A stretch of 64,000 bases of DNA from an uncultured Flavobacteriales bacterium (GTDB lineage: Bacteria; Bacteroidota; Bacteroidia; Flavobacteriales_D; Sanyastnellaceae). The stretch spans positions 1,850 to 65,849 of the forward strand of contig CALKGQ010000001.1 in NCBI GenBank assembly GCA_938085425.1, given 5' to 3'. Under the pieces are notes generated by a model that made no database searches, was not told where the DNA came from, and worked only from the letters and a program-made list of their open reading frames with translations. Made by a program: the position numbers and the translations under genes. Below, in pieces: positions 1,492-63,839 of this stretch. Each line of letters starts with the position of its first letter. Positions within the stretch are counted from its first letter, which is position 1.

Positions 1492-1533
1492 CATTTGCCC
1501 TCTACCTAGGATTTTTGACGTTAATTGCTGCCC

Positions 1534-2196: not shown

Positions 2197-2251
2197 GCCC
2201 AGGTTTCGAACCGCAGAAACGAATGAACCGTGCATAGATGGCACGTAGAAA

Positions 2252-3430: not shown

Positions 3431-4290
3431 GCTGCGAGCCACGGGCTCGGGTCGACGGCTTGGCCCTTGACCCACCATTCGAAGTGAAGATGAGGGCCTG
3501 TCGTAAGGGCTCCGGTGTTCCCAATCAACGCCACAGCCTCTCCTCCAACGACCAAATCGCCCTGTTGTTTGAGCAGGGAGGAACAGTGTTTGTAGACTGA
3601 AACCCGATCTCCTCGGTGTTGGATCAACATGGTGTATCCCGTTTCCACAGTGTAAGAGCTGAACAACACCGATCCGTCGTCGACAGCTTGAATGGCGGAT
3701 CCTCTTGGCGCCACCAGGTCAACCCCGAGATGCCCCCGCCCCCTGTCCAACGCATCAGACACTCCGCCCACAACCGGCGGAAAACGGAACCCAAGCGAAA
3801 GAGTTGTTCCACCACCGGAGCGACGCTGGAGCGCAAAACGGTCTTCATTGGCGACCTGTTCCCTGAGTGCCAACTCACCTGGTCCTGGCCCTTCGAACAC
3901 CTGCGCGGAATCCAGGATCAAGGGGTTGTTTTCGTCGGTTGTGAGGGACCCTTTTCCCGAGAGGAAGGCCAGCGCTGCGCTGTCTCCTGAAAGGCTATGG
4001 CGAAGGGCCATCACTGTTTGGGCGTTCTGCTGCAACACCTGTTCCATGCTGTCGGCGAGCGCTTGTGTGGCCTCCATGCTTTCCCTGGTGGACGTGGCCA
4101 CATATCCAGGCACCAACACTTCCCTTAGCGGGGTCAATGCGACCAACACAAATGTCAATCCCCCCACAGCGCAAAGGCCCGCGATGGCCATCCACAACCA
4201 ACCCCTTGGGGTTCCCTTGAACACGCGGATTTCAGAGAAGGAACTCTCGTCAAAAACGGTGACCTTCATGGGGTGTTTCCAAAGCGACAT
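3421..4290 (-). CDS. M23-family metallopeptidase (membrane-anchored)
   Basis: HLGVDL ... GNTGALTTGPHLHFEWW (M23 HxxxD / HxH motifs). N-terminal TM helix. Track start 4329 is TTG; ATG at 4290 (or 4269) preferred. Confidence 0.8.
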   Translation of the reverse strand: MSLWKHPMKVTVFDESSFSEIRVFKGTPRGWLWMAIAGLCAVGGLTFVLVALTPLREVLVPGYVATSTRESMEATQALADSMEQVLQQNAQTVMALRHSLSGDSAALAFLSGKGSLTTDENNPLILDSAQVFEGPGPGELALREQVANEDRFALQRRSGGGTTLSLGFRFPPVVGGVSDALDRGRGHLGVDLVAPRGSAIQAVDDGSVLFSSYTVETGYTMLIQHRGDRVSVYKHCSSLLKQQGDLVVGGEAVALIGNTGALTTGPHLHFEWWVKGQAVDPSPWLAAQP

Positions 4291-4346
4291 GTTGCGAATA
4301 TCGACACCCGTGCAAACTTTCTCGCCCAAGGAAGCGGTTCATCCAA

Positions 4347-4354
4347 TATTTTTG
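4347..4354 (+). promoter_or_regulatory. Candidate -7 promoter box (TATTTTTG) for the TPR lipoprotein / atp gene string
   Basis: Exact TAnnTTTG ending 23 nt upstream of ATG 4378. Confidence 0.35.
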
Positions 4355-4377
4355 GGCACGCTTACGTTCCCCAACCC

Positions 4378-7053
4378 ATGCATACTCGCACTACATTCAT
4401 TCTCCTGACCCTCCTTGTGGCCACGACATGGATGTCTTGCACGACCAAACGGGACGGACGCGCCTACAGGCTGTACCACAACACCACCGCCAAGTACAAC
4501 GGCTTTTATTACGCCAACGAAGCGTTGGACGAGGCAGACGGGAAGCTGGAGGAAATGCACGAGGAGCGATGGGATGAGGTTCTTCCCTTGTTTTTGGAAA
4601 GCGACGAAAGCACGGCACAGCAAATTTTCCCGTTGATGGAGCGTGCCATTGAAAAGTGCACCCGCGTGGTGGACCGGCACACCATGGCGCCGCCCAAACG
4701 GATGACCAAGTCGTTCAACCGTCCGGTCATGAACAAATGGATTGACGACAACTACACGGTCATTGGCAAATCTTATTACCTCAAAGGCGACTACCCCAAG
4801 GCCGAGGAAATTTTCACGTACCTCTCCCGAACCGTGGATGGAGACGACGCGGAGGCTTGGTCCTTTTCATGGCTGGGCCGAACCCACATGCGCACTGGCG
4901 ATGAGATCAAGGCCAAAAACGCGCTGGCAAAGGCCGAGAGCATCCGCGACGCCTCGGACGAAGCGATGGTCCACACCTTGATGGTTTTGGCCCAGTACAA
5001 AATCCTCAATGGCGATTACGAAGCTGCGGCAAGACACCTCGAAGACGCCCTCCCACGCATGGGCAAAAAGGACAAAGCAAGGACCCGCGCGACCTTTGTG
5101 TTGGCCCAATGTCTCCGAGAGGCGAAAGACAAAGAGGGCGCCATCGAGCAGTTTCAGGAGGTTGCCAGCATGCGTTGGGCAGATTACGAGTGGGTGTTCC
5201 AGGGCAACATTCAACAAGCCATGACTTACGAGCGCCGCAACGGCAACAGCGAAGCCATTGTGGAGCTTTTGGAAGCCATGCTCGAGGACCACAAAAACGA
5301 ACCCTACTTGGACCAAGTGTTTTTTGCGCTGGGAGAGGTGGCGTTGGAAGACCGAAGGAGGGACGAGTCGTTTGGACTGTTCAAGCAGAGCGTTGCGGCA
5401 CATACCGACGACGATCGTCAACTCGGCAAAGGCTACCTGAAGCTCGCAGACCTTTACATGGAGGATTTGGTGTACCCAACTGCCCAAGCCTATTACGACA
5501 GTGCCTTGGCTTACATTGAGGAAGACGACGAACGGATGGAGGAGGTGAGTGCCTTGGCCTCAGACCTGAACAGTTTGGTGGGAAACTTGGATATCATCCA
5601 AGAAGTAGATAGCATGTTGACGCTTTGCGACATGGACGAAGACCTTCGGTTGAGGGCAGTCGACCGTGTTTTGCGCAACATGGAATTGGAGTTGAAGAGA
5701 ATGCGCGAGGACCGTGAAGCGGCGCTCGAGGCCGCTGCCGCCGCCGCTGCTGCAGACAACACGGGTGTGGGCATGTTTTGGCCCTACAATGGCCAGCTTC
5801 GAGCATCCGGGCAGCAACAATTTTTGTCGTTTTGGGGGGACCGGGTGTTGGAGGACGATTGGCGCCGGTCCAACAAAATGGCCAACTTGTTTTCAGAGGA
5901 CGACGATGTGACAGAAGAGGGAGAGCAGGGGGGAGAGGATGAGGTGTTGGACCCCTTGGACCCAGCCAACCTCCCCACTTTTGAGGAACTTTTGGCATCC
6001 CTCCCCTGTGAGCCCGACACAAGGGTGCTGCAAGAAGAGCGCATGGCTGAAGCCTACTACAACGCCGGCCTGGACTACCGCGAAAAACTCAACGACAACG
6101 AGAAAGCCATTGAAACATGGGCAGAACTCATTGAAAAACTCGACAGTTCCTTTTTCCATCCGACGGCCCACTATCAGCTCTTCAGAACCTATTTGGAGAG
6201 AGAGGTTGAGGAGAACTACCAAAACCCTTTTTGCGACGACTGCAACAGCGCGTATTGGGCAGATGAAATCGTGCGACTTTATCCTGGAAGCGAATGGGCA
6301 AAGCTGATTTTGGATCCTGAATTCTTGGACGAAGAAGAGGTTCTCCGTGAGGCACAGCGAGAAGTGTACGAAGACCTTTTGGGACGCTACTACAGGAGGG
6401 ACTATCAAAATGTGTTGCTTGACATTGATGACGTCGTCGCCCAAGACTCCGTGAATTTCTTTGCGTGCAAGTACACCTTGCTCCGGGCGCAGTGCGTTGG
6501 GGGGTTGACGAGTTATACCGGTGACCGCACCCCTTACTTCGAGGCGTTGCAAGGCATCGTGGCGTCTTGTCCCGACACCGAAGAGTCCGCCTTTGCCTCC
6601 GAACTCATGCGGACCCTCGGTGTGGACCTGGGAGATGCATCGCCCAAAAAAGAACAAGAGGAGGCCCCAGAGGTCCAACCATTCGCCATTCAACCCAGCA
6701 ACCAGCATTACTTGGGCGTTTTTGTCCCTGTGGGCCGCGGGAATGGAAATGAAATCAAGGCCACCACAGCAGACTTCAACAACGCGTTCTACGGCTCCAA
6801 GCGTCTGAAGGTCACAAGCAACCTGATTGACCGTGCCACCCAAGTGGTTTTGGTGAAATCTTTCAACAATCAAGAAGAGGCCATGGGGTACTATGAAGTC
6901 TTCACCAGCAACAGGGAGGACCTCATTGACATCAACTCTTCAGGCTACGACATTGCGGTCATCAGCAACGAGAACTACGTGACATTGTTCAAAAACAAGG
7001 ACATCCGAGGGTACGTGGACTTCTTCTCTCAACATTACCTTTCGGGTCAATGA
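4378..7053 (+). CDS. TPR-repeat lipoprotein, SprE/PorW-like (T9SS-associated); family assignment tentative
   Basis: ATG 4378 gives a lipoprotein signal (LLVATTWMSC). N-terminal CTTKRDGRAYRLYHNTTAKYNGFYYA resembles the SprE/PorW N-terminus as I remember it. TPR-like helical repeats and an acidic coiled-coil middle. Sits directly upstream of bactofilin and the atp operon. Confidence 0.5.
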   Translation: MHTRTTFILLTLLVATTWMSCTTKRDGRAYRLYHNTTAKYNGFYYANEALDEADGKLEEMHEERWDEVLPLFLESDESTAQQIFPLMERAIEKCTRVVDRHTMAPPKRMTKSFNRPVMNKWIDDNYTVIGKSYYLKGDYPKAEEIFTYLSRTVDGDDAEAWSFSWLGRTHMRTGDEIKAKNALAKAESIRDASDEAMVHTLMVLAQYKILNGDYEAAARHLEDALPRMGKKDKARTRATFVLAQCLREAKDKEGAIEQFQEVASMRWADYEWVFQGNIQQAMTYERRNGNSEAIVELLEAMLEDHKNEPYLDQVFFALGEVALEDRRRDESFGLFKQSVAAHTDDDRQLGKGYLKLADLYMEDLVYPTAQAYYDSALAYIEEDDERMEEVSALASDLNSLVGNLDIIQEVDSMLTLCDMDEDLRLRAVDRVLRNMELELKRMREDREAALEAAAAAAAADNTGVGMFWPYNGQLRASGQQQFLSFWGDRVLEDDWRRSNKMANLFSEDDDVTEEGEQGGEDEVLDPLDPANLPTFEELLASLPCEPDTRVLQEERMAEAYYNAGLDYREKLNDNEKAIETWAELIEKLDSSFFHPTAHYQLFRTYLEREVEENYQNPFCDDCNSAYWADEIVRLYPGSEWAKLILDPEFLDEEEVLREAQREVYEDLLGRYYRRDYQNVLLDIDDVVAQDSVNFFACKYTLLRAQCVGGLTSYTGDRTPYFEALQGIVASCPDTEESAFASELMRTLGVDLGDASPKKEQEEAPEVQPFAIQPSNQHYLGVFVPVGRGNGNEIKATTADFNNAFYGSKRLKVTSNLIDRATQVVLVKSFNNQEEAMGYYEVFTSNREDLIDINSSGYDIAVISNENYVTLFKNKDIRGYVDFFSQHYLSGQ

Positions 7054-33401: not shown

Positions 33402-36251
33402 ATGCCTTCTATCATACGCCTGTCTTTGGTTTCCTTGTTGTTCACCACGTTGCCTCAGTGGAGCTGGGGACAGTCCTTTGTGAATGGCAATGGCGCTTTG
33501 CCCCAAACGTTCAACAGTGGGGGGTGTGTTGGCTTCGCGGATTTGGACGGCGACGGCCTGGACGATTTGATCGTTTTGGACCAAAGCCGGGACCTGCACA
33601 CTTTGTACCAAACGCCTGCAGGGACGTTCGAAGACTACCCATTGGGCCAGGTTTCGGGCTCCAGCCAGTGGGGCATGTGTGTGGGGGACTTTGACAACGA
33701 CGGCCACAAGGACGTTTTCAGCGGAGGGTCCTACGACGGCGTGCACATGATGCACATCACCGCCCCTGGGCAAGCGAACCTTCAAAGCTTGGGCAACGGG
33801 AGCATGTTCATGCAAGCTTGCAACATGGCGGACATTGACATGGACGGTGTCTTGGATGTTTTTGCGTGCCACGACGATGCCGTCAGCCGCCTTTGGAAAG
33901 GAGAAGAATCAGGTTCGCTTTCCAGCGAATCTGGCTTGATGCCCTTGACCAGCTACGACACGGGAGGTTATCCCAACACGGACCACAGTGGCAACTACGG
34001 CTCCGTTTGGACGGATTTCGACAGGGACGGGGATTTGGACCTCTACATTGCCAAGTGCCGCCAATTCGTCAATGACCCCCAGGACCCGCGCAGGGTCAAT
34101 CAACTGTGGGTCAACGACGGGCAAGGCAATTACACGGAGGAAGCTGCAGCTCGGGGTTTGGTCTTTTTTGAGCAGAGCTGGACGGCAGACTTTGCAGACG
34201 TGGACAACGATGGAGACTTCGATTGTTTGGTCACCAACCACAGCACGACCCTGTTTTTGCTTGAGAACAACGGCGCAGGCCAATTCACAAACATCACCGA
34301 GGGCAGCGGCCTGGAAGTCACAGGCTTCTTTCTCCAAGCCAAAATGGAGGACTTTGACAACGACGGCTACGTGGACCTCGTTTACAGCGGAGGGGTTCAT
34401 GCCTATTTCCACAACAACGGAGACCAAACCTTCACCCAAGTGCCCAACATGTTCCCCTACGGCGACACGATGCACAGCTTTGCCACAGGCGATGTCAACC
34501 GCGACGGTCAGGTGGATTTGTACGCGAGCTACGGAAACGGCTACGTCACCGCAGACAATGGCAACGACGATGTCTTGTGGCTGAACGAAGGCAACGCCGA
34601 CCAGCATTGGATCACCTTTGAGCTCGAAGGATTCCAATCGAACAGAGACGCTGTGGGCGCCACGGTCGAAATCACCGGCTCTTTTGGCACGCAAGTGCGC
34701 AGCGTGCGCGCTGGAGAGAGCTACGGCATCACCTCGACGTTTTCATGCCACTTTGGGCTGGGTGCGGCCGATGTTGTGGAAACGGCCACGGTGTTTTGGC
34801 CTAGTGGTTTGACCACGGAACTGACGGCTCCTTCAGTCGATCAATACCACACTGTCCTCGAAGTGCCTTGCACAGTGCCCCTTGCCATCGAGGCCTCGGC
34901 CACAAGCATCTGCCCCGGGGAGAGCGCCATCTTGATGGCACCTGTTGGGTTTGATTCTTACCAATGGAGCAACGGCACCACGGCCGGCAACATGCTGGAA
35001 GTGACAGAAGCGGGACTCTATGCACTGACCGCCTTCAATGCGGAGGGATGTGCAGGCTTGTCCAACACTGTGCAGGTGGAGGTCTTGGACGGTTCTGTGG
35101 CACCGACGGTGGCTGTGGAAGGAGATGAAAACCTCTGCGCAGGAAGCACATGGACATTGAGCGCAAGTGATGGCTCAGCCTATCTGTGGAGCAATGGCGC
35201 CACCACTTCGAGCATCGAGGTGGGGGTTTCAGGATCCTATTCGGTGTCCGTCGAGGACCAGTGTGGCAATGCCATCTCGTCTTCAGAGGTGGACGTTGTG
35301 GTGTTTGATGGCCCAACGGAGGCCCCAATCATCTCCCCCGACACCACTTTGTCTTCCCCCGGATCGATTCTGTTGACGGCGGAGGCAACAGGAGGGGCGC
35401 TGATCCAGTGGTTTGACGCTGAAGTTGGAGGCAACTTGGTGGCAGAAGGATCGGATGTCAACCTGCCTTTGGTCACGGAGTCCACCACATTGTGGGCAGA
35501 GGCGAGCCAGGTCACCACAGGTCCTTCTGGGACGGGCGGTGAACTTGCGGTGCAGCCCGGAGGACAGTACCACCCCAACAGCGCGCGCTGGTTGGAATTT
35601 GACGTCACCGAGCCCATGCGACTTGTCGATGTGACCTTGCAAGCCAACGGCACCTTTGACCGGTCATTTGAGATCATCGATGCCTTTGGGCAGGTCTTGT
35701 GGTCTGCCACCGAAGAAGTCCAGGATGGGGAGCACCTGCTGTCCATCGGTGTGGAATTGGAACCGGGCTCAGGATACGGTTTGCGCTGCACCACGGACGA
35801 CCCTCAGCTTTGGCGAGAGGGAACGTCGTCGGCCTTGAGTTACCCTTACGATTTGGCGGGACTGGGTTCCATCACCAACAGCACGGCAGGTCCGAGTTTG
35901 GAGTATTACTACTTCTTCTATGTCTGGAACGTGGAAAGCACGTTGGACGTCACGTGCGCCGGACCACGCTCGTCTGTGACCATTGACGTGTCCCAATGCA
36001 CGGACCCTGGCGCATGCAACTTCAACGCGAGCGCCACGGTGGACGACGGGTCATGTGAGTACGCGTCTTGCGCGGAGACCTGCTATGGCGACTTGAATGG
36101 CGATGGAAGCATCACGGTGGGCGACTTGTTGACCGTGCTCTCGGACTTTGGTTGCGCGTCGTCCTGCAATGCGGACATTGATGGGGACGACCAAGTGTCC
36201 GTGCAGGATTTGCTCGCGTTGCTCTCCGTCTTTGGAGAAGTCTGCAACTGA
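33402..36251 (+). CDS. Secreted FG-GAP/VCBS 7-repeat propeller with ASPIC/UnbV domain (CRTAC1-like), Ig-like repeats and a C-terminal dockerin-like pair
   Basis: Signal peptide. Seven DxDxDG-type repeats (FADLDGDGLDD, VGDFDNDGHKD, ...). UnbV/ASPIC stretch (AVGATVEITGSFGTQVRSVRAGESYGI). YxWSNG Ig-like modules. C-terminal DLNGDGSITVGDLLTVLSDFG... Confidence 0.8.
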   Translation: MPSIIRLSLVSLLFTTLPQWSWGQSFVNGNGALPQTFNSGGCVGFADLDGDGLDDLIVLDQSRDLHTLYQTPAGTFEDYPLGQVSGSSQWGMCVGDFDNDGHKDVFSGGSYDGVHMMHITAPGQANLQSLGNGSMFMQACNMADIDMDGVLDVFACHDDAVSRLWKGEESGSLSSESGLMPLTSYDTGGYPNTDHSGNYGSVWTDFDRDGDLDLYIAKCRQFVNDPQDPRRVNQLWVNDGQGNYTEEAAARGLVFFEQSWTADFADVDNDGDFDCLVTNHSTTLFLLENNGAGQFTNITEGSGLEVTGFFLQAKMEDFDNDGYVDLVYSGGVHAYFHNNGDQTFTQVPNMFPYGDTMHSFATGDVNRDGQVDLYASYGNGYVTADNGNDDVLWLNEGNADQHWITFELEGFQSNRDAVGATVEITGSFGTQVRSVRAGESYGITSTFSCHFGLGAADVVETATVFWPSGLTTELTAPSVDQYHTVLEVPCTVPLAIEASATSICPGESAILMAPVGFDSYQWSNGTTAGNMLEVTEAGLYALTAFNAEGCAGLSNTVQVEVLDGSVAPTVAVEGDENLCAGSTWTLSASDGSAYLWSNGATTSSIEVGVSGSYSVSVEDQCGNAISSSEVDVVVFDGPTEAPIISPDTTLSSPGSILLTAEATGGALIQWFDAEVGGNLVAEGSDVNLPLVTESTTLWAEASQVTTGPSGTGGELAVQPGGQYHPNSARWLEFDVTEPMRLVDVTLQANGTFDRSFEIIDAFGQVLWSATEEVQDGEHLLSIGVELEPGSGYGLRCTTDDPQLWREGTSSALSYPYDLAGLGSITNSTAGPSLEYYYFFYVWNVESTLDVTCAGPRSSVTIDVSQCTDPGACNFNASATVDDGSCEYASCAETCYGDLNGDGSITVGDLLTVLSDFGCASSCNADIDGDDQVSVQDLLALLSVFGEVCN
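35997..36248 (+). other. C-terminal module A: CxDPxACNF...DDGSCEY motif plus two dockerin-like EF-hand repeats ending FGEVCN-stop
   Basis: CTDPGACNFNASATVDDGSCEYASCAETCYGDLNGDGSITVGDLLTVLSDFGCASSCNADIDGDDQVSVQDLLALLSVFGEVCN. Confidence 0.7.
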
Positions 36252-44206: not shown

Positions 44207-45604
44207 ATGTTGATTCGCCTGTCCTTTTCTGCCCTTTGCGCAGCCCTTCTTTTTTTGACGTCCAACCCCGTTTCAGGACAAGAAACGTTCCAGGTCGGGG
44301 CGACCACGCTCACGGCGTCGAACGTCGCTTCTGGCATCCAAATCCCATGGGAACTGCTTTGGGGACCAGACGATCATCTTTGGGTGACGAGCCGCGCAGG
44401 TTCGGTGCACCGCATTGACCCAGAGACCGGGACCACGTCTACGGTGTTGACCAAATCCGTCACCAACAACGGCAACGGCGAGCCCGGCATGCTGGGCATG
44501 GCCATGCACCCTGATTGGGAGAACACCCCCAAGGTGTTTGTGGTCTACACAAGTGGATCTTCTTGGAATGGCACAGAGTACTTGTCGGTGTTCGATTGGA
44601 ATGGATCTGGACTCGTGAACGAAGAAGTGCTTTTGTCCCTCCCGGCAGCAGGCATCCACAATGGAAGCCGCCTGTTGGTGCTCCCCGACAACACGCTCTT
44701 GATGTCCACAGGGGACAAAGGGGATGGAGGGGCGAGCAGCCAAAACTTCAACAGCCTCAACGGCAAGATCCTTCGCTTGAACCTCGACGGCAGCATCCCA
44801 GCAGACAATCCCACTCCGGGAAGCTATGTGTACAGCATGGGGCACAGGAACCCACAGGGTTTGGCCATGGGCCCCAATGGCCTCATCTACAGCTCTGAGC
44901 ATGGCCAAAGCAACAACGACGAGGTGAACATCATCCAACCGGGACGCAACTACGGCTGGCCCAATGTGGAGGGGGTGTGCAACACTTCAAGCGAGAACAG
45001 CTTTTGTGTGGCCAACAACGTGGTCGAACCCATCGATACGTTTTCGCCCTGTGCCGCGGTCAATGGCATGACCTGGTACAACCACCCGGCCATCCCGGAG
45101 TGGCAAAACAGCATTTTGCTCTCTGTCATGGGTGGTTTTGCCCTCGACGACAAGCGCCTGAGTGTGTTGTCCCTTTCGGAAGACGGCACGACCGTCACAA
45201 ATGAAACGCAGCATTTTGCCAGTTACGGACAGCGCCTGCGCGATGTGGCTGTCAACCCCACCACAGGCGCGGTGTATGTGGCCTTCAACGGCTCTTCCTA
45301 CCCCGGCTCTGGTCCCAACGTGATCAAAGAATTCCGCAACCTCGACTACGTGCCCTCCACCGCTGTTGCGGGATGCAAGTACCCAGGCGCACTGAACTAC
45401 AACGCCGGCGCCACAGAGGATGACGGCACTTGCCAATTCGCGGGGTGCACCGACATGGAAGCTCTGAACTACGTGCCTTGGGCCAACGTGGACACCGATT
45501 GCATTTACCAAGCGCCTTGCGCAGTGGACGTCGATGCCGATGGCGCGACCACAGTCGCCGACTTGCTCCTCGTGCTTGGTGCCTTTGGCGACCTCTGCGA
45601 TTGA
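44207..45604 (+). CDS. Secreted PQQ-dependent sugar dehydrogenase (soluble glucose/sorbosone dehydrogenase family) with C-terminal dockerin-like repeat
   Basis: GMLGMAMHPDW, GHRNPQGLA, EHGQSNNDEVNIIQPGRNYGWP. Signal peptide at ATG 44207. Confidence 0.85.
   Translation: MLIRLSFSALCAALLFLTSNPVSGQETFQVGATTLTASNVASGIQIPWELLWGPDDHLWVTSRAGSVHRIDPETGTTSTVLTKSVTNNGNGEPGMLGMAMHPDWENTPKVFVVYTSGSSWNGTEYLSVFDWNGSGLVNEEVLLSLPAAGIHNGSRLLVLPDNTLLMSTGDKGDGGASSQNFNSLNGKILRLNLDGSIPADNPTPGSYVYSMGHRNPQGLAMGPNGLIYSSEHGQSNNDEVNIIQPGRNYGWPNVEGVCNTSSENSFCVANNVVEPIDTFSPCAAVNGMTWYNHPAIPEWQNSILLSVMGGFALDDKRLSVLSLSEDGTTVTNETQHFASYGQRLRDVAVNPTTGAVYVAFNGSSYPGSGPNVIKEFRNLDYVPSTAVAGCKYPGALNYNAGATEDDGTCQFAGCTDMEALNYVPWANVDTDCIYQAPCAVDVDADGATTVADLLLVLGAFGDLCD
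45371..45601 (+). other. C-terminal module B: two CxxxxA(L/C)NY motifs plus one dockerin-like repeat ending FGDLCD-stop
   Basis: GCKYPGALNYNAGATEDDGTCQFAGCTDMEALNYVPWANVDTDCIYQAPCAVDVDADGATTVADLLLVLGAFGDLCD. Confidence 0.65.
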
Positions 45605-45661: not shown

Positions 45662-48007
45662 ATGAACCCTATTTCTACTTTGTCCGCCACGCTTTGCGCC
45701 CTCGCGCTCTTCTGCGGAATCCCCCAAGTGCTTCACGCCCAATGCACCGACAACCAGTCTGAAGTGGTTGTTGAAATCCTCACCGACAACTACCCCGGCG
45801 AAATCACTTGGACGTTGACCGGCACGGAAGGATTGTTGCTTTCTGGAGGTCCTTACGGCTCCACAGGCACGTCCTATTCGGACACAGTGTGCATCGACAA
45901 TGCAGATGCGTACCCGTGCTTGCAATTCGTCATCAACGACAGTTACGGCGATGGCATCTGCTGTGGATACGGTCAAGGGTCGTACACGATTTACCTCGAC
46001 GGAGAGTCGGTGGCCACAGGAGGAGACTACGACCAACAAGACCTCGTGCAATTCGACTGCGCCCCAGGGGCCACCTGCAACGACGCGGTGGCATTGACGG
46101 ATGCAGACTTTGGCACGGTGTCGCAAGCAGGGGACAATTTTTGGTACACCTACACCCCGCCCGCCAACGGCATGTACCAGTTCAGTTCCTGTGGGGCCAA
46201 CTGCAACACGACGCTGTACATCTACGACTATTGCAACATGGGCAACTTCGACGACACGAACGAAGGGTCCATCTACTACGACGACGACCAGGGCGGTTGT
46301 GGCGAAGAAGCCACGATGACCATGTTGTTGGAGGGAGGACAGCAATACTGGGTTCGCTTTGCGTCGTTGGACAGCAGTTGTGGTGGGTTCGATTGGACGT
46401 TTGACTACGCGGGCCAACCCACGGGATGCACCGACCCCACTGCCTGCAATTACAGCCCGGCTGCAGAGGTGGACAATGGGTCTTGCATTTACGAAGGCGA
46501 CCCGATGTGCACTGGCCCGGATCTCGTGGTTTTGGCGGACGTGGTGTCCAGCAGCCTTTACTCGACCACGATGAATGTGAGCGAGACCGATTGCTACATC
46601 GAAGAAGGTTGCTTGAATGGCTTTGGCGAAAGAGAGCTCATCCGATTCACGACCCACATCAAGAACATTGGCGAATTGGACTACTACATCGGGACGACTG
46701 CGCAGGCAGAGCAGACCGGACAATTTGAATTTGGAGATTGCCACAACCACTGGCACTACCAAGGGTACGCGAAGTATGACCTTTTCACCATGGACGGAGC
46801 GTTGATCCCCATTGGGTTCAAGAACGGCTTCTGTGTGATGGATTTGGAGTGCAGCGACGGCGGGACGTTCACCTATGGATGTTCCAACATGGGCATCGCA
46901 TCGGGATGTGGCGACATTTATTCGAGTGGCTTGAGCTGCCAATGGATCGACGTTACGGACGTGGAGGACGGCCAATACCGCCTCGTGGTGCGTGTCAACT
47001 GGGACTACGATCCCGACGCCTTGGGTCGCTATGAGACCAACACCGAGAACAACTGGGGTGTGGTTTGCATTGAGTTGGACAGGTCCGGAGGGGATTTGCA
47101 GACCATCATTTTGACAGACTGCCCTACGTTCACGGATTGCTCAGGCGAACCTTACGGAACGGCCTTGTTGGATTGCAACGGCGAGTGCGGTGGTGTGGCC
47201 ATGGTGGGCGACTTGAACGACGACCTCCAGCAAGACATGGCCGACGCCCAGATGTACGTGGAGGGTGTTCTTGGGAGCGACTTGACGGTGGCGGATTGTT
47301 CCGACATCAACGCCGACGGCACCATGTCGGTGGCGGACGCGATGTTCATGGCAGATTGCCACTTTTGGAACCAAGCGCACACCGACCCGGACAGTTCCGG
47401 CGTCCACAGCCATTGCGAGTTCCCCGTGAACGACCTCACGAACCCCTTCGATACAACGCACTTCACCATCGCAGATGTGAATTGGGAGGAGCAGTACTTC
47501 GACGTGCATGTCAAGAATCCCGACGCTCGGATTTACGGCTACCAGTTGGAGTTTGATGGGGTCCAAATCAGCCAAACAGAGAGCCTCCTCGACCCTGCCA
47601 CGGGCTACACAGGAATCCCTGCCCACGCCCCGGGAGGTCAGCAGGTGCTGACGGTCAGCTACGATGGCACGTCAGCGCCCAAAAACACGGTGTACGTGCC
47701 GCTTGTGCGCGTCCATTGGATTGGAAGCGTCAACGGCATGGTGTGTTTGGAAGGCGTGCATGAAGTGATGAACGACTACTTGCAGAAGACCTTGATTGAT
47801 TTGGACAACCCTTGCCAGGAGCAAGCCGACAGTTCTTGCCCTGGAGACACCGACGGAGATTTGGTCGTGTCTGTCTCTGACGTGTTGGACGTCCTCAGCG
47901 AGTTTGGGTGCATCACCAACTGCACCATGGACATCAACGGGGACGGTGTCACCAACGTGACCGACGTGCTTGCGGTGTTGTCTGCATTTGGGACCGATTG
48001 CAATTGA
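45662..48007 (+). CDS. Secreted multidomain lysyl-oxidase (LOX, PF01186-like) homologue with Cys-rich N-terminal modules, an internal cohesin-like domain and a C-terminal dockerin-like pair
   Basis: Block-by-block similarity to the animal LOX catalytic domain as I remember it: ERELIRFTTHIKNIG, FEFGDCHNHWHYQGYAKYDL, GFKNGFCVMDLEC, GCGDIYSSGLSCQWIDVTDVEDGQYRL, TENNWGVVCIEL. Signal peptide ...IPQVLHA. Confidence 0.8.
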   Translation: MNPISTLSATLCALALFCGIPQVLHAQCTDNQSEVVVEILTDNYPGEITWTLTGTEGLLLSGGPYGSTGTSYSDTVCIDNADAYPCLQFVINDSYGDGICCGYGQGSYTIYLDGESVATGGDYDQQDLVQFDCAPGATCNDAVALTDADFGTVSQAGDNFWYTYTPPANGMYQFSSCGANCNTTLYIYDYCNMGNFDDTNEGSIYYDDDQGGCGEEATMTMLLEGGQQYWVRFASLDSSCGGFDWTFDYAGQPTGCTDPTACNYSPAAEVDNGSCIYEGDPMCTGPDLVVLADVVSSSLYSTTMNVSETDCYIEEGCLNGFGERELIRFTTHIKNIGELDYYIGTTAQAEQTGQFEFGDCHNHWHYQGYAKYDLFTMDGALIPIGFKNGFCVMDLECSDGGTFTYGCSNMGIASGCGDIYSSGLSCQWIDVTDVEDGQYRLVVRVNWDYDPDALGRYETNTENNWGVVCIELDRSGGDLQTIILTDCPTFTDCSGEPYGTALLDCNGECGGVAMVGDLNDDLQQDMADAQMYVEGVLGSDLTVADCSDINADGTMSVADAMFMADCHFWNQAHTDPDSSGVHSHCEFPVNDLTNPFDTTHFTIADVNWEEQYFDVHVKNPDARIYGYQLEFDGVQISQTESLLDPATGYTGIPAHAPGGQQVLTVSYDGTSAPKNTVYVPLVRVHWIGSVNGMVCLEGVHEVMNDYLQKTLIDLDNPCQEQADSSCPGDTDGDLVVSVSDVLDVLSEFGCITNCTMDINGDGVTNVTDVLAVLSAFGTDCN
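47836..48004 (+). other. C-terminal module C: two dockerin-like EF-hand repeats ending FGTDCN-stop
   Basis: CPGDTDGDLVVSVSDVLDVLSEFGCITNCTMDINGDGVTNVTDVLAVLSAFGTDCN. Near-colinear with module A. Confidence 0.7.
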
Positions 48008-51241: not shown

Positions 51242-53377
51242 TCAGTCGCACGCCGTCCCGAAGTAGAGCAGGAATTCCAGCACGTCGTTGACCCCGACAA
51301 ACCCGTCGTCGTCCAAGTCTTCCACGCCCAAAACGGGGATGGCGTCGTAGCTGGCCAGCAAAATCAACATGTCGTCGATGCCGCGGGTGCCGTCGCCGTT
51401 CAAATCGGCAGCACAAACCGCATGGGCTTCGATCAAGTCGAAGGCCAGGTTCAAAGCGTGTTCGGCCACCTCCAGTCCAATGCGGCGTCCGGGAAGGTCG
51501 TCGCACGGCGGGTGGATGCCGCCCCAAATGCGGGACAAACTGCACTGGTCTGAGGCATCTCGGTAGGTTGCCCACTGCAACACAATGTCTTGTGAGGGTC
51601 CTTCTTCAAACACGAGGAAATCGTCCGCGGGTGCCACAAACTCGCCAAGGCCACCAGGGAAAAATGCATCCCCGGTGATGGCGGTCATCACCTCTGCTGC
51701 GGCCCGCGAGAAGGTGGAGTGTCCGCTGACGTACCCGGCAAAGGGTGGGGTCACAAAGGAAGGCCGTTGGTAGGGCCACCACTGTTCTGCAAGGATCCAA
51801 TCCACACCAGCTTCGTCGGTGGCTGGGTTGTTGATGTACTCGGGTCCCCTCCAGGCGCGGACCTTGAGTTTGTCCACATCAGCGGGGCTCGGAAAGTCGA
51901 GGTCGCCCGGCGTGACCATCTCACAAAACCCAGGGACCAGGGGAAGGCCCGTGGCATCAAAATTGGGCAAATTGGGGTCGGTGCACTGTCCTCGGCCTTG
52001 CATCCACCTCAAAGCGGACACGGGTCGGATGTAGTCGTACCAGCCTTTGTGGCTCCATGCGGCGATGGCGGCATCGTGCAACGCCCCGCCAAGTGTGAAG
52101 TAGGCACACACCGCCCAATCAAAGGGGTACATGTCGGGACCTTCGCCACGCCATTTGGCCTCAAAATCGGGGTGGTCCATCACCCCATTGGCGATGCTGA
52201 ACCAGTGTCCCGGAGGCGTTTCTGAATCGGGGCCATCGGCCCAAAACTCCGCCAACACACGGGTGTAGTCTCCGCGCGGCACCAGTTGTTCCTCATAGGC
52301 CGCTCCTGTGGCCGGGTTGAGGGCATGGCCTTGGCTGGGGTCTCCCCCATGCTCCCAGTCGTAAAACTGGTCGTACTCCGAGTAACCGAGGTTCAAAAGT
52401 GAGGGGTCGACATTGCCCACAGAAGACGGGCTGATGTCCAGCATGACGCCGTCGGTGGGGTCCAAATGCTCCGACCAGCGCAACACCATGGCATGTCCCC
52501 ATGTGTAGGCGTCTTCGATGCCTTGGGCATAGTTCAAGGACAGGAGCGGTGGTTCACCTTGGTCCAGCCAAACAGGGTAGGGATGGCCGTCGTCGCTCAT
52601 GTACACGGTGCGCACACTGTCCGGCAACCCAAACGGCGTCACCTGTCCCCATTCGGGGCTGAGGAACGGAGGGGTTTCCGATTCTGGAACCCCACTTTGG
52701 CCAATGAATGTGCTGAGGTTGATGCTCTGCCATCGGTTGGGCTGCGCCAAGAAGGGATTGCCTGGCACGGTCTCGATGAACATGTCCGGGTTGGAGGGCG
52801 TGTAGTGTTGGTTGGCGTAACCGTTGATTTCGTTGCTCCCGTCGGCGTAACCATAGGCCAAGACTTGTTGCGCGATGTAGTTGCCAAGGGCTGCAGGTCC
52901 ATCCACGAGGTAGTCGGTGCTCTGCATGCTGTTCACGCCTCCCTCCAACGCGAATTGTTGGAAGATGGACATCAAGGTCGCATTGCCTCCGGGACTTCCT
53001 GAGAAGCGGTTCCACAAAAGCCGGTAGGAGGCGTAGTTGATGGCTTCTTCTTGGGCCAAACGCCTCGCCACGGGATCTTCAATCGCCGGCAGGTTGACGT
53101 TCACAAGAAAGGGAGCGGCCGTGCTGTCGTAGGCTGCCCATGCATCGTAGCAGGCCAACGACCAATGGTGCAAGTTCCTTGCATGGACGGTAGGACGTGC
53201 CAGATCTGCACGAATGGACTCCAACAACACCTCGTTCCAATCGCGGACCATGTTTTGGGCTTGAACCCCCGTCCCATGGGACAGTGCCACGCCCCAAAAG
53301 GCGCACAACGAAGCCACCCGCAGGAGGGCTCGGCGGTGCCGCTGACGTGGAGTGTCCTTGTGAAAATGCATGGTCAT
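51242..53377 (-). CDS. Secreted PAP2-superfamily / vanadium-haloperoxidase-like enzyme with possible Tat leader and C-terminal dockerin-like pair
   Basis: All three PAP2 motifs are intact: KGWYDYIRP (Kx6RP), VSGHSTF (SGH), SRIWGGIHPPCD (SRx5Hx3D). N-terminus has RQRHRRALLRVASLCAFWGVALS. ATG 53377 (track start 53392 is TTG). Confidence 0.75.
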   Translation of the reverse strand: MTMHFHKDTPRQRHRRALLRVASLCAFWGVALSHGTGVQAQNMVRDWNEVLLESIRADLARPTVHARNLHHWSLACYDAWAAYDSTAAPFLVNVNLPAIEDPVARRLAQEEAINYASYRLLWNRFSGSPGGNATLMSIFQQFALEGGVNSMQSTDYLVDGPAALGNYIAQQVLAYGYADGSNEINGYANQHYTPSNPDMFIETVPGNPFLAQPNRWQSINLSTFIGQSGVPESETPPFLSPEWGQVTPFGLPDSVRTVYMSDDGHPYPVWLDQGEPPLLSLNYAQGIEDAYTWGHAMVLRWSEHLDPTDGVMLDISPSSVGNVDPSLLNLGYSEYDQFYDWEHGGDPSQGHALNPATGAAYEEQLVPRGDYTRVLAEFWADGPDSETPPGHWFSIANGVMDHPDFEAKWRGEGPDMYPFDWAVCAYFTLGGALHDAAIAAWSHKGWYDYIRPVSALRWMQGRGQCTDPNLPNFDATGLPLVPGFCEMVTPGDLDFPSPADVDKLKVRAWRGPEYINNPATDEAGVDWILAEQWWPYQRPSFVTPPFAGYVSGHSTFSRAAAEVMTAITGDAFFPGGLGEFVAPADDFLVFEEGPSQDIVLQWATYRDASDQCSLSRIWGGIHPPCDDLPGRRIGLEVAEHALNLAFDLIEAHAVCAADLNGDGTRGIDDMLILLASYDAIPVLGVEDLDDDGFVGVNDVLEFLLYFGTACD
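51245..51420 (-). other. C-terminal module D: two diverged dockerin-like repeats ending FGTACD-stop
   Basis: AVCAADLNGDGTRGIDDMLILLASYDAIPVLGVEDLDDDGFVGVNDVLEFLLYFGTACD. Confidence 0.6.
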
Positions 53378-59780: not shown

Positions 59781-62700
59781 ATGTGGGCCCTGTCCCCCTT
59801 CATTACATTCGCCTCGATGCCACGCAATTCTTTTCAATGTCCCCCATGGAATGCCCTCCAAGCTTGCATGGTTTTCATGGTGGCCCTGGCAGGGGGAACC
59901 ACCTTGGGCTTTGGACAAGGGCATCCAGGGGAATTGCAGTGGCTTCCCAACCAAGGCCAATGGGAGGTGCCCGCCCTTGCGCGTGCGGACTGGGCCGGGG
60001 GAGTGACGTGGTTGGAAGAGGACGGCATGAACATCTGGGTGGCCGGTGAAGGGTACGACGAATTGTGGGCCCACCAAGACGATCGCTTGACGGCCTTCGA
60101 CCCGGAGGCTCTTTTGACAAGCCACGGGTGGCAGGTGCATTGGGAGGGAAGTGGGCCTGATCCAGTGCACGAGGTGCTTTCCGAAGCAGGCCACCGCGTC
60201 AATGTTTATTTGGGCCAGGACCCGTCGCGCTGGGCCGAGGGTTTGGTGCCTGAGACCCGCTTCAAACTCCACAATGTTTGGCCGGGGATCGACTTGCGGG
60301 TGGGTCCGCGCACCCGCGGGGACCAAGCCGAGCTTCCAGGGCCCGGCTGGAAGGAAGACTGGATCGTGCATCCCGGTGCGGATGCTGCGAAGGTGGCCAT
60401 ACGGCACGAAGGGGCGTCGCTCTCGTTGTTGCCCGATGGGAGTTTGAGATGCCAACTTGGCGAGACGGCCGAAGCGCGGTGGGGGGTTCCTTTTGCTTAC
60501 CAAATGGAAGAAGATCGCCTGCAAGAAGTCGAAGTGCGCTACCTCTTGAACGGCTCCACGGTGACGTTTGAGGTAGGTGAACACAACCCAGCATTGGACT
60601 TGGTGATTGATCCCGACATTGTGTTTGCCACTTACATCGGCGCGACCCAGCCCAATTGGGGATTCACTGCAGCCTACGACGACGAAGGACGGGCCTTGGG
60701 AGGAACGGCACTTTGGAACGGTGATTTGGGAACCTACCCCACCACCGCCGGGGCGGTGTCGACGGCCATGACGGCGGCTTCCGGACCCTTTGACTGTGGT
60801 TTCAGTGTTTTTTCGGCGGACGGAACCGGTTTGGAATACAGCACCGTCATTGGCGGATCTCAACTCGACGTGCCATCGAGCATTGTGTCGGACAGCAACG
60901 GGGCGATGTACATCTTGGGAACCACAGGCTCTGCCGATTTTCCTGTCACCACGGGGGCGTTTGAAGGGTCCTTTTGTGCGAATCCGTCGGTCAACTTGGA
61001 TGCATGTTGCAACTATCCGGGTGGGGGCGGGTTGCCCAACGGATCGAGCCTGTTTGTCATGAAATTCACGGAAGTTGATGCGGGGTGCGTGTTGGAATCC
61101 TCCACGTACATCGGGGGTTGCAATGGCCCTTCAGGGGTGAACCGTGGGGACTTGCTCAACTACAACTACGGGGATGTGTTTCGCGGAGAAATCAACGTCG
61201 ATGCCTCCGATCGTCCCTGGGTTGCCAGCGTGACGGGGGCGAGTGATTTCCCCATGGTCAATGCACCTGCCCCAGCTTTTGGGGGGGGGTCCACGGACGC
61301 GGTGGTGTTCCGCATGTCGTCGGATTTGAGCACCTTGGAGTGGTCGACTTTCCTAGGGGGATCCTCTGAAGACGCCGCCTACGGTGTACAGTTCACCCCG
61401 GGCGGGGAAGCCGTGGTTTGCGGCGGCACCACCTCCAACAACTTTCCCACCCTGTCCAACGCCGACGATGGGAGCTTTGGGGGGCTTGCAGACGGCTTTG
61501 TGGTGCGTTACCCTGTGGGAGGCGGCGCTGCAACGGGGGCCACATTGTTTGGCACCAACAACTACGACCAGGCCTACTTCGTGCAAGTGGACCCCATCAG
61601 CCGCGTGTACCTCTATGGCCAAAGTCTCGGGGGCAAACCCATCACGGCAGGAACGTACGATGAGAGCCCCCAAGCGGGCCAGTTTGTGGCCTGCCTGTCC
61701 CCTGGGTTGGACGACCTGGTGTGGCACACCCGCATTGGAGACCCCGGCAACGTTGGGAGCATTGACATCAGCCCTACTGCGTTTTTGGTCAGCGAATGTG
61801 GTGAAATCTACCTCAGTGGATGGGGAGGCACCACCAACAACTCCAGTCCATTCATTTTCACTTCCAGCACCTTGGGCATGCCCACCACGGAGGGCGGTTA
61901 CCAACTTGGCACGGACGGTTCAGATTTTTGGCTTGGGGTGATGGACCCGGGGGGTGTTGATCTGAACTACGCGACCTTCTTTGGGGGAGGCGAATCGGCT
62001 GAACACGTGGACGGCGGGACGTCTAGGTTTGACAAGGATGGAACGGTGTATCAGGCCATGTGTGCGGGCTGTGGAGGCAACAGCGACTTGCCCACCACCC
62101 CGGGCGCTTGGAGTTCCACCAACGACAGCTTCAACTGCAACTTGGGGCTCTTCAAGTTTGAATTGGGGGAGTTGAATGTGGGCATTGATGTGGGCACTCC
62201 CGGGGTCCTGTGCAATGGCCAAACCGTGGACTTCGTGAACACCTCCACTGAAGGCTATGAGTACCTGTGGACGTTTGACGACAACGAGACGAGCACAGAA
62301 TACGAGCCCACCCACACCTTTCCGGGTCCGGGGATTTACGATGTGATCTTGACGGTGACCGACCCCACAGGGTGTTTGGCTCCCGTGAACACCGACATTG
62401 AAGTGAACATTCAGACCTTGCCCAACCCCAACATCATGCCCGTGGGGCCGGTGTGTGTCGGAGAGTCCGTGCAATTGATCGCCAACGGTTCGCCAGATTT
62501 GGTGTGGTCTCCCAATCCCTTGTTGACGGATCTGGCCCTCGCCGTGCAGGACGTGACGCCACCCGCGGGGACGACCACCTTCAATGTGACCGATGTCAAT
62601 GCATGCGGGGAGGGTTCAGCCTCCTTGGACGTGGTGGTTCAAGTGGTGAATGCAGAAGTGGTGCCTGAGGCGATTTCCATTTGTTTGGGCGACGACGTGG

Positions 62701-63839
62701 ACCTCGTGGCGGCGGGTGCCCCCAATGCGGTGTGGTTCCCTCCAGCGGGTTTGGACAACCCCAACAGCACCACGGTCACGGCCTCCCCGACGGCCGACAT
62801 CACCTACAACGTGGTGCTGACGGACGACCTGGGATGTTCAGACCAAACCAGTGTCGATGTGTCCGTCGTTCCAGGTCCCCCGGGGGGGATGACCTACCCA
62901 ACGGAAGAGGTGTGTGTGGGATTTGGGGTGCAGCTGCCCGGTTCAGACGGGGACCAATGGCAATGGGGTCCAGCCGAATTTGTGAACGACCCCAATGTGC
63001 AATTTCCGTTTGCTTTTCCCGATGCGACAACGACCTTTTCAGTGGACATCGCCAACATTTGTGGTGTGGGAACGGACGAGGTCACCGTGGTGGTGAGGGT
63101 GCCCGAGGCCTTTGCCTCTGAGGACGGTGGGATGTGCCGTGGGAACGTTTTTGAAGTGTCAGCAGAAGGCAATGACCCCAATTCGACCTTTCAGTGGTCT
63201 CCGGCAGAATTGGTCCTGTCGCCCGCAGGTTCCACCACGGGGGTCTTCCCCAACTTCACCCAAACCTTCACCGTATTTGTCACGGACAGCGAAGGGTGCA
63301 CCGACAGCGATGAAGTGACGGTGTACGTCACCCAACCCCCGGAGATTGATGCCGGTCCGGACCGCTCTGTGGCGTGGCTTGACCAGGTGCGCCTGTTGGG
63401 AAGCACGTCGGGCCAATCGCCGTTTTGGACCCCCTCTGACCCCCTCAGTTGCGACACCTGTCTGACCCCGACGCTTGAGGTGCTGGAGTCGGGCTGGTAT
63501 GTGTTGCACGCCTCAGACTCAACGGGCTGTGGAGGCAAGGACTCGACCTACGTGGAAGTCTATTACCCCGTGTATGTCCCCAACTCCTTCACCCCCAACA
63601 ACGACGGCATCAACGATGTGTTCCAGGCGGTGGGGGAGGATTTGAAGGGATTTTGGATGAAGGTCTTCAACCGCTGGGGAGAGCAAATTTTCCTCAGCGA
63701 GGATCCTTCGGTGCCCTGGAGAGGGGAGGTGGGCGACGGTGTTCATTATGCCCCGGATGGGATGTACCGATGGCAAATTCGCATCGAAGAAAAGGACGGT
63801 CCCCTTTTGCTCGAAGGCCAGGTTTTCCTGCTGCGTTGA
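59781..63839 (+). CDS. Large surface protein: SBBP-type beta-propeller repeats, PKD domain, Ig-like repeats, T9SS type B (gliding-motility CTD) sorting domain
   Basis: Repeated ...[FY]LGG...D.A..[IV]..D..G...V.G.T.S.DFP... units. PKD (VDFVNTSTEGYEYLWTFDDNETS...GIYDVILTVTD). C-terminal YVPNSFTPNNDGINDVF. Start uncertain (ATG 59781, 59817 or 59868). Confidence 0.85.
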   Translation: MWALSPFITFASMPRNSFQCPPWNALQACMVFMVALAGGTTLGFGQGHPGELQWLPNQGQWEVPALARADWAGGVTWLEEDGMNIWVAGEGYDELWAHQDDRLTAFDPEALLTSHGWQVHWEGSGPDPVHEVLSEAGHRVNVYLGQDPSRWAEGLVPETRFKLHNVWPGIDLRVGPRTRGDQAELPGPGWKEDWIVHPGADAAKVAIRHEGASLSLLPDGSLRCQLGETAEARWGVPFAYQMEEDRLQEVEVRYLLNGSTVTFEVGEHNPALDLVIDPDIVFATYIGATQPNWGFTAAYDDEGRALGGTALWNGDLGTYPTTAGAVSTAMTAASGPFDCGFSVFSADGTGLEYSTVIGGSQLDVPSSIVSDSNGAMYILGTTGSADFPVTTGAFEGSFCANPSVNLDACCNYPGGGGLPNGSSLFVMKFTEVDAGCVLESSTYIGGCNGPSGVNRGDLLNYNYGDVFRGEINVDASDRPWVASVTGASDFPMVNAPAPAFGGGSTDAVVFRMSSDLSTLEWSTFLGGSSEDAAYGVQFTPGGEAVVCGGTTSNNFPTLSNADDGSFGGLADGFVVRYPVGGGAATGATLFGTNNYDQAYFVQVDPISRVYLYGQSLGGKPITAGTYDESPQAGQFVACLSPGLDDLVWHTRIGDPGNVGSIDISPTAFLVSECGEIYLSGWGGTTNNSSPFIFTSSTLGMPTTEGGYQLGTDGSDFWLGVMDPGGVDLNYATFFGGGESAEHVDGGTSRFDKDGTVYQAMCAGCGGNSDLPTTPGAWSSTNDSFNCNLGLFKFELGELNVGIDVGTPGVLCNGQTVDFVNTSTEGYEYLWTFDDNETSTEYEPTHTFPGPGIYDVILTVTDPTGCLAPVNTDIEVNIQTLPNPNIMPVGPVCVGESVQLIANGSPDLVWSPNPLLTDLALAVQDVTPPAGTTTFNVTDVNACGEGSASLDVVVQVVNAEVVPEAISICLGDDVDLVAAGAPNAVWFPPAGLDNPNSTTVTASPTADITYNVVLTDDLGCSDQTSVDVSVVPGPPGGMTYPTEEVCVGFGVQLPGSDGDQWQWGPAEFVNDPNVQFPFAFPDATTTFSVDIANICGVGTDEVTVVVRVPEAFASEDGGMCRGNVFEVSAEGNDPNSTFQWSPAELVLSPAGSTTGVFPNFTQTFTVFVTDSEGCTDSDEVTVYVTQPPEIDAGPDRSVAWLDQVRLLGSTSGQSPFWTPSDPLSCDTCLTPTLEVLESGWYVLHASDSTGCGGKDSTYVEVYYPVYVPNSFTPNNDGINDVFQAVGEDLKGFWMKVFNRWGEQIFLSEDPSVPWRGEVGDGVHYAPDGMYRWQIRIEEKDGPLLLEGQVFLLR
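63570..63836 (+). other. T9SS type B C-terminal sorting domain
   Basis: VYVPNSFTPNNDGINDVFQAVGEDLKGFWMKVFNRWGEQIF...GMYRWQI... Confidence 0.8.

Follow-up and report, generated by a model that had tools for sequence, protein, structure and literature searches.

A cysteine motif, an internal dockerin and a predicted cohesin-fold domain form one composite module in secreted lysyl-oxidase-family proteins of Bacteroidota

Domain organisation of P0001

The DNA analysed here (hereafter, the window) is a stretch of 64,000 nucleotides from an uncultured Flavobacteriales bacterium (assembly GCA_938085425.1, contig CALKGQ010000001.1, positions 1,850 to 65,849 of the forward strand). It contains the gene for P0001, a lysyl oxidase (LOX)-family protein. 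Downstream of the catalytic domain, residues 492-720 of P0001 make up one composite module of around 230 amino acids, which we call the cassette and in which two parts are obligately coupled: a cysteine motif with an internal dockerin-type EF-hand pair, and a beta domain predicted to have a cohesin fold. A hydrophobic leader and two Cys-rich modules precede the LOX domain, and a dockerin-like tail forms the carboxy-terminus. The features are as follows (window coordinates):

45662-48007, forward strand: P0001, a 781-residue secreted multi-module LOX-family protein (open reading frame list and translation)
46517-47011, forward strand: lysyl oxidase catalytic domain, residues 286-450 (Pfam PF01186, E 1.4e-30, 106.9 bits)
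47135-47194, forward strand: Cys motif DCxGxxYGxAxxDCxGxCGG, residues 492-511, with three invariant Cys residues, 12 and 4 apart
47207-47359, forward strand: internal dockerin-type EF-hand pair, residues 516-566, with two 12-residue Ca2+ loops and a helix after each
47360-47437, forward strand: conserved linker, residues 567-592, taken to end in the invariant Cys585
47438-47821, forward strand: predicted cohesin-fold beta-sandwich, residues ~593-720 (AlphaFold2, AF2, and Foldseek)
47837-48004, forward strand: dockerin-like tail at the C-terminus, residues 726-781; it has two EF loops and four Cys residues, and ends in FGTDCN and the stop codon

Lysyl oxidase is the only domain that Pfam recognises in P0001. 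The domain can be aligned with that of human LOXL2 (PDB entry 5ze3_A, E 2e-23), and in this alignment the copper-binding motif CHNHWH (pattern CHxHxH), the Lys of the lysine tyrosylquinone (LTQ) cofactor, located in GFKNGFC, and the LTQ Tyr, located in GDIYSS, coincide with the LOXL2 positions. P0001 is thus a PF01186 member that retains the copper His triad and both LTQ residues. There are 19 full-length homologues of P0001, with 58-98% identity over residues 495-781.

One composite module

In all the proteins collected, an automatic test found the beta domain to be directly preceded by the CGG-dockerin module in 236 of the 239 instances that could be tested. The three misses also carry the module; two are due to overlaps of one or two residues in the match coordinates, and in the third, P0103, the module was recognised by inspection. 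Counting the inspected cases, every testable beta domain (239/239) directly follows a dockerin. The first-pass annotation had treated the two parts separately; given this adjacency, they are better described as one obligate cassette.

Eight Cys residues are invariant in all 130 aligned sequences. In P0001 they are residues 493, 505, 509, 546, 566, 585, 695 and 718, and their successive spacings in the family are 12, 4, about 37, 20, 11-20, about 108 and about 23 residues. Conservation of this kind, together with that of the Ca2+ loops, shows that the features are not due to chance. The unit can also be amplified as a whole: P0026, a protein of 1,936 residues, contains six tandem copies of it with a period of about 220 residues, located between the LOX domain and the C-terminal domain of the type IX secretion system (T9SS). 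Tandem amplification of a whole unit is typical of stalk modules.

The cysteine motif and the internal dockerin

In the cysteine motif, alignment columns D3, C4, G6, G10, D15, C16, G18, C20 and G22 are invariant among the 130 sequences. In the AF2 model, short beta bridges are predicted for this region, and the predicted local distance difference test (pLDDT) value climbs from 70 to 86 along it.

The Ca2+ loops of the internal dockerin are DLNDDLQQDMAD and DINADGTMSVAD, each then followed by a helix. Both loops have Asp at positions 1 and 12 in 130 out of 130 sequences, while positions 3 and 5 are nearly always Asp, Asn or Ser. A type I dockerin has two segments in tandem, each some 22 residues long and comprising a 12-residue Ca2+ loop (Asp or Asn at positions 1, 3, 5, (9) and 12) and a helix, and the internal dockerin has this two-loop pattern (PF00404). 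The invariant Cys546 and Cys566 fall within it, and its two helices are modelled with pLDDT values of 92-97.

Taken alone, the internal dockerin of P0001 matches the Pfam Dockerin_1 family with an E-value of 0.089 and 13.4 bits, below the gathering cut-off of 22.9 bits. The homologous stretches of three relatives are above this cut-off, with 46.6 bits for P0026, 33.0 for P0051 and 25.9 for P0029. A Dockerin_1 match (E<1) is present in 28 of 41 family members, the best with an E-value of 1.1e-6, and no rival family was found. A profile of the unit compared with all PDB sequences gave 29 matches at E<=10, of which 28 are dockerin-bearing and are matched over the EF-hand segment; the best are 2y3n_B (1.5e-4), 1daq (2.5e-4) and 2vn6_B (6.4e-4). 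The single non-dockerin match, to WNK1, was judged to be due to chance. The NCBIfam model NF041540, for 'GC-type dockerin', does not match the internal dockerin at all.

The presence of an internal CxGxCGG motif with a dockerin-like pair, proposed in the first-pass annotation, is therefore borne out by the conserved Cys motif, the Dockerin_1 matches in the family, the PDB profile matches and the loops themselves. The segment had been placed in the right frame, but with a start at 47171, which is where DCNGECGG begins; the peptide DCSGEPYG...QQDM begins at 47135 (residue 492), and the peptide DINADG...FM ends at 47350. A second segment, in the beta domain, had been described as lying about 115 residues later. 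This holds when counting from the start of the first segment, but the distance from the end of the EF-hands at residue 563 to HFTIAD at residue 600 is 36 residues. The second segment does start at 47459 (residue 600), as proposed, and is in frame.

The linker and the beta-sandwich domain

The linker has the family consensus HxxxGSxxHDHCxFP and is often rich in His. The distance between Cys566 and Cys585 varies from 11 to 20 residues among relatives, and in the AF2 model the linker is ordered, with pLDDT values of 74-81. Separately, a His-rich linker might form a metal site in a copper enzyme such as this one; P0026 has, in its tandem units, a shorter linker with no His residues.

The beta domain includes the strand IYGYQLEFDGVQI, together with the invariant Cys695 and Cys718. 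A Pfam search with residues 585-735 gave no match at E<=10. Among 1.8 billion representative proteins, 152 cluster representatives match the domain in sequence at E<=1e-3.

An AF2 model from a shallow alignment of 20 close orthologues had a mean pLDDT of 44 and was uninformative for the beta domain. The final model, of a 292-residue chain that includes the tail, was calculated from an alignment of 130 sequences gathered through the full-length family profile. It has a mean pLDDT of 84.9 and a predicted template modelling (pTM) score of 0.76, with the last 60 of its 292 residues poorly placed. The pLDDT exceeds 90 over model residues 20-230 and is 92-98 between the start of the dockerin and the end of the beta-sandwich; for the beta domain itself, around 11 strands are predicted, with pLDDT values of 95-98.

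When the modelled beta domain was compared with the PDB using Foldseek, cohesins occupied ranks 1-11 and 13, i.e., 12 of the 13 best matches. These matches have E-values from 1e-5 to 5e-4 and all have a probability of 1.00. They are entries 4dh2_C (the best, 1e-5), 2vn5_A, 2vn5_C, 1g1k_A, 2jh2_A/B/C, 4fl4_K, 5m2s_A, 5n5p_A, 5n5p_C and 2w1n, and comprise type I and type III cohesins as well as cohesin-like modules of Clostridium perfringens. TM-scores to single-module cohesin chains, normalised to the target, are 0.47-0.56. Cohesins are flattened beta-sandwiches of about nine strands with a jelly-roll topology, which bind the dockerin on their 8-3-6-5 sheet. On the basis of the model, residues 593-720 are predicted to have the cohesin fold, as the first-pass annotation had anticipated from the sequence pattern.

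Sequence searches gave a different result. The Pfam Cohesin family (PF00963) has no match in the P0001 beta domain (E<=10) or in 41 family members, and no Pfam-recognisable cohesin was found in the whole source genome at E<=1. The unit profile found no cohesin among the PDB sequences. The link to cohesins thus comes from the predicted structure only.

The remainder of the Foldseek list bears on a different interpretation, in which the beta-sandwich would be a ligand or substrate module resembling a carbohydrate-binding module (CBM) and would target the oxidase to a polymer, for instance on an algal or particle surface, while the EF-hands would provide Ca2+ support only. Cohesin and CBM jelly-rolls are structurally close, and after the cohesins the list contains a CBM (3ndy_E) and Ig-like domains. 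The cassette is also bound to one enzyme family and directly follows the catalytic domain, as targeting modules often do. We nevertheless consider a substrate module unlikely. The 13 best structural matches include 12 cohesins, which come from several species; an adhesin stalk domain (9ifr) takes rank 12, and a CBM first appears at rank 14, with an E-value of 2e-3, about 200 times worse than that of the best cohesin. The Pfam search gave no sequence match to a CBM family in the P0001 beta domain or in 41 family members, and six tandem copies suit a stalk more than a binding site.

With a single dockerin and a single cohesin-like module, each unit has what is needed for a self-complementary polymer. 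The internal dockerin of one LOX protein might then bind the cohesin-like domain of another, forming daisy-chained oligomers on the cell surface, and the six tandem units of P0026 would raise the valency. Such assembly in trans appears distinctly unlikely to us, as the short, conserved and Cys-anchored linker (11-20 residues) and the single confident body in the AF2 model are both more in keeping with a closed arrangement inside one molecule. The cohesins and dockerins of classical systems are shuffled independently of each other, whereas in the cassette the two parts are never separate.

Distribution of the family

The family profile found more than 2,239 proteins at a threshold of E<=1e-10. 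Among the 120 family matches listed, all but about 18 are annotated as containing both LOX and Por_Secre_tail (PF18962) domains, and the proteins are named 'lysyl oxidase family protein' or 'T9SS type A sorting domain-containing protein' in their sources. A LOX domain is present in all 89 cassette representatives whose sequence leaves room for one upstream. Two full-length proteins, P0074 (560 residues) and P0119 (576 residues), have lost it, while retaining the signal peptide, both Cys-rich modules, the cassette and the T9SS C-terminal domain; loss of the enzyme thus leaves the accessory modules in place. The cassette is a distinguishing feature of this large Bacteroidota family of secreted LOX-like proteins.

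A survey of LOX evolution published in 2015 described most prokaryotic LOX proteins as consisting of the LOX domain only (PMC4448552), so the cassette is not described there. Nor did we find, in the literature searched, a description of a fixed cassette of CGG motif, dockerin and cohesin in Bacteroidota LOX proteins. Its parts are of known kinds, namely a type I-like dockerin, a predicted cohesin fold and, in P0001, a candidate GC-type dockerin tail, and the proteins themselves have already been annotated automatically as LOX-family or T9SS proteins.

Loci orthologous to the P0001 gene come almost all from metagenome-assembled genomes (MAGs) of uncultured marine Flavobacteriales, some labelled Crocinitomicaceae. 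Five loci (L003, L010, L027, L039 and L056) are from public MAG records that bear the name Comamonadaceae, Methanobacteriota archaeon or Gammaproteobacteria, and contain a Flavobacteriales-type gene with 40-80% identity; these records are probably mis-binned or mislabelled. The label 'Euryarchaeota' on P0019 is of the same kind. One database label pointed to an archaeal (MGII) origin; this was rejected, as the window encodes PorW/SprE and a candidate T9SS type B protein and almost all relatives come from Flavobacteriales MAGs.

The C-terminal tail and a T9SS-type paralogue

The T9SS type A C-terminal domain is a C-terminal beta-sandwich of about 75 residues that matches Por_Secre_tail. P0001 has no match to Por_Secre_tail; its C-terminus is a helical EF-hand pair, which occupies the place that the T9SS C-terminal domain has in most relatives. 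This tail matches the PDB dockerin 2y3n_B with an E-value of 0.044, and NF041540 over the full 67-position model with an E-value of 2.6e-4 and 21.3 bits, the cut-off being 29 bits. Five other tails encoded in the source genome exceed this cut-off, and the tails match over the full model length.

The source genome, G000, is 2.07 Mb long, in 56 contigs, with a completeness of 97.8%. At least 31 of its proteins end in a D-x-N-x-D-G...FG-x-x-C pattern (FGxxC[DN]) located 0-4 residues from the stop codon, and beside the GC-type dockerin tails there are 45 Por_Secre_tail matches. The source organism is a Bacteroidota bacterium with a T9SS. In the window, the GC-type dockerin tails and the genes related to the T9SS are:

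35997-36248, forward strand: GC-type dockerin tail
45371-45601, forward strand: GC-type dockerin tail
47837-48004, forward strand: candidate GC-type dockerin tail (that of P0001)
51245-51420, reverse strand: GC-type dockerin tail
4273-7053, forward strand: T9SS component PorW/SprE (475 bits)
59781-63839, forward strand: 1,352-residue T9SS type B candidate

The 1,352-residue protein has a weak match to the T9SS type B sorting domain (32.9 bits, against a cut-off of 35). Together with PorW/SprE, it suggests that the classical T9SS route coexists with the class of dockerin-tailed proteins. A Cys motif of around 22 residues, GCTDPxACNYxPxAxxDDGSC, recurs between the modules of P0001 (window 46424-46492, residues 255-277) and is also present shortly upstream of many dockerin tails in the source genome.

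A second copy of the cassette is encoded in the same genome, in a paralogue of P0001 (contig C48, positions 1-2247, forward strand), and these two LOX copies contain the only cohesin-like modules detected there. From its N-terminal modules through the LOX domain to the cassette, the paralogue is laid out like P0001, and it differs only at its C-terminus, which matches Por_Secre_tail with an E-value of 1.2e-5 and 25.9 bits, slightly below the cut-off. Of 61 related loci, the 30 that can be read to the stop codon with 60-100% identity all keep a dockerin-like tail, with three more cut by contig ends; 27 others have T9SS-like tails and 33-50% identity over the cassette only, and one more is truncated where its contig ends. 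Both forms occur together in several related MAGs. From the paralogue, the tails at these loci and the MAGs with both forms, we infer that in one LOX paralogue a dockerin tail has taken the place of the T9SS C-terminal domain, this being the presumed direction of the exchange. The pair is a natural domain swap that could be used to learn what the tail does.

Phyletic distribution of the cassette and the tails

One set of 151 genomes from the order was searched both with the tail profile and with the beta domain. Tails occur in all 23 genomes of the window's own family, with at least 52 matches in 13 of them, and are rare in other families. The beta domain occurs in 19 of these 23 genomes and is scattered over nine other families. 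In this single-sequence search, no match to the beta domain was found in the near-complete, tail-rich genomes G084, G128 (2 contigs), G136 and G140, and in about 20 genomes the beta domain is present while no tail was found. Neither element thus depends on the other, and the cassette and the C-terminal tails are phyletically independent across the 151 genomes.

These data bear on the proposal, made in the first-pass annotation, that the cohesin-like module is an open receptor for C-terminal dockerin tails, either its own or those of three other tagged enzymes, allowing self-assembly or a small surface complex. The predicted fold and the at least 31 dockerin-tailed proteins of the source genome would suit such a receptor. 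So would the absence of a Pfam-recognisable cohesin from that genome, in which the two LOX copies provide the only cohesin-like modules detected; this failed search is, however, weak evidence, because the beta domain itself escapes the Pfam model. Against the proposal, more than 2,200 LOX proteins have the cassette, nearly all of them with a T9SS C-terminal domain and no tail, as does the paralogue. The two elements occur apart in about 20 genomes with the beta domain and in at least four near-complete genomes rich in tails, and the beta domain is always accompanied by a dockerin of its own. In the AF2 model the tail is not docked or placed confidently (pLDDT 41-65), a weak indication, because few alignment rows cover it. 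We therefore find the proposal unsupported and an open receptor for the tails highly improbable.

A possible role for the cassette

The interpretation we favour, with a probability of roughly one half, is that the cassette is a self-contained module, stabilised by Ca2+ and disulfides, which acts in cis as a spacer between the enzyme and its C-terminal anchor. It is favoured by the 1:1 adjacency of dockerin and beta domain, the Cys-anchored linker, the single confident body in the AF2 model and the tandem amplification. The small disulfide-knotted CxGxCGG motif, the two-loop dockerin and the cohesin-fold sandwich would be inherited as one bead, in which the dockerin and the cohesin-like domain of the same chain would pack against each other. 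Four conserved disulfides, with a pairing that is presumed, and two Ca2+ ions would stiffen it. Placed after the catalytic domain and before the sorting or anchoring signal at the C-terminus, the bead may serve as a spacer or stalk that holds the oxidase off the cell surface; it would not act as an open receptor to which other proteins bind. In the lineage of the window, the T9SS type A C-terminal domain would have been swapped for the GC-type dockerin tail that is widespread in this bacterial family, with the cassette being older than this exchange and independent of it.

Several points weigh against this interpretation. TM-scores to cohesins are only around 0.5, and are not accompanied by a sequence-level link to Pfam Cohesin. 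The argument from the pTM score for one body is indirect, and a confidently predicted arrangement is no proof of a stable complex in cis; the contact between the dockerin and the cohesin-like domain, and the face that would be used, are presumed. A head-to-tail polymer in trans would also be compatible with the strict 1:1 adjacency. The putative spacer role is drawn by analogy with adhesin stalks. Finally, the search for the beta domain in the genomes used one sequence, and divergent copies may have been missed.

It is very unlikely, in our estimation, that the cohesin-like domain functions as a receptor and that the cassette can open, either to form head-to-tail polymers of LOX proteins or, after co-option in this Flavobacteriales family, to capture GC-dockerin-tailed enzymes, which would include the neighbouring pyrroloquinoline quinone (PQQ) dehydrogenase as well as the FG-GAP protein and the PAP2-like enzyme. 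If true, this would amount to a cellulosome-like complex of oxidative enzymes on a Gram-negative surface.

Of the plug-and-socket parts used by surface machines of bacteria, dockerins and cohesins are the best known, and they are normally found on separate proteins. In the cassette, plug and socket are permanently fused, presumably stapled by disulfides, and inherited as a unit in thousands of LOX-like enzymes of Bacteroidota, with the socket half, the beta domain, having no Pfam family model. Recognition of the cassette corrects the published view of prokaryotic LOX proteins as mostly single-domain, provides a defined construct for structural work and argues against calling every cohesin-shaped domain a scaffold.

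Comparison with known systems

One comparison is with other Bacteroidota LOX proteins. The homologues P0226, P0232 and P0067 have the same layout up to residue 720, with 40-53% identity to P0001; they end in Por_Secre_tail (PF18962), whereas P0001 and its orthologues end in the dockerin-like tail. A further comparison is with the GC-type dockerin-anchored proteins of NF041540, a model that the tails of the source genome match over its full length, five of them above the cut-off; the P0001 tail scores below the cut-off, and the internal dockerin has no match.

The stalks of bacterial fibrillar adhesins (CLIPPER domain, PDB entry 9ifr) are made of covalently stabilised beta-sandwiches that can be arranged in tandem, as can the cassette. 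In the cassette, stabilisation would be by disulfides and Ca2+ rather than by isopeptide bonds, and each repeat includes a dockerin. We regard the likeness to adhesin stalks as a functional analogy only.

With the cohesin and dockerin modules of non-cellulosomal systems (the cohesin-like module of C. perfringens GH84, 2jh2 and 2w1n) and of cellulosomal type I systems (4dh2, 2vn5 and 1g1k), P0001 has in common the two-loop Ca2+ dockerin, the predicted cohesin-like beta-sandwich and the context of an extracellular enzyme. The Pfam cohesin search of the source genome at E<=1, with a model that the P0001 domain itself escapes, revealed no scaffoldin carrying several free cohesins. Unlike the modules of these systems, the beta domain of P0001 has no sequence match to PF00963, and the dockerin and cohesin-like parts are fused in a fixed order by a linker that is short and Cys-anchored, and are always found together. 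The cassette also adds the CxGxCGG motif and eight invariant Cys residues, and its host is a Gram-negative bacterium of the Bacteroidota that uses the T9SS.

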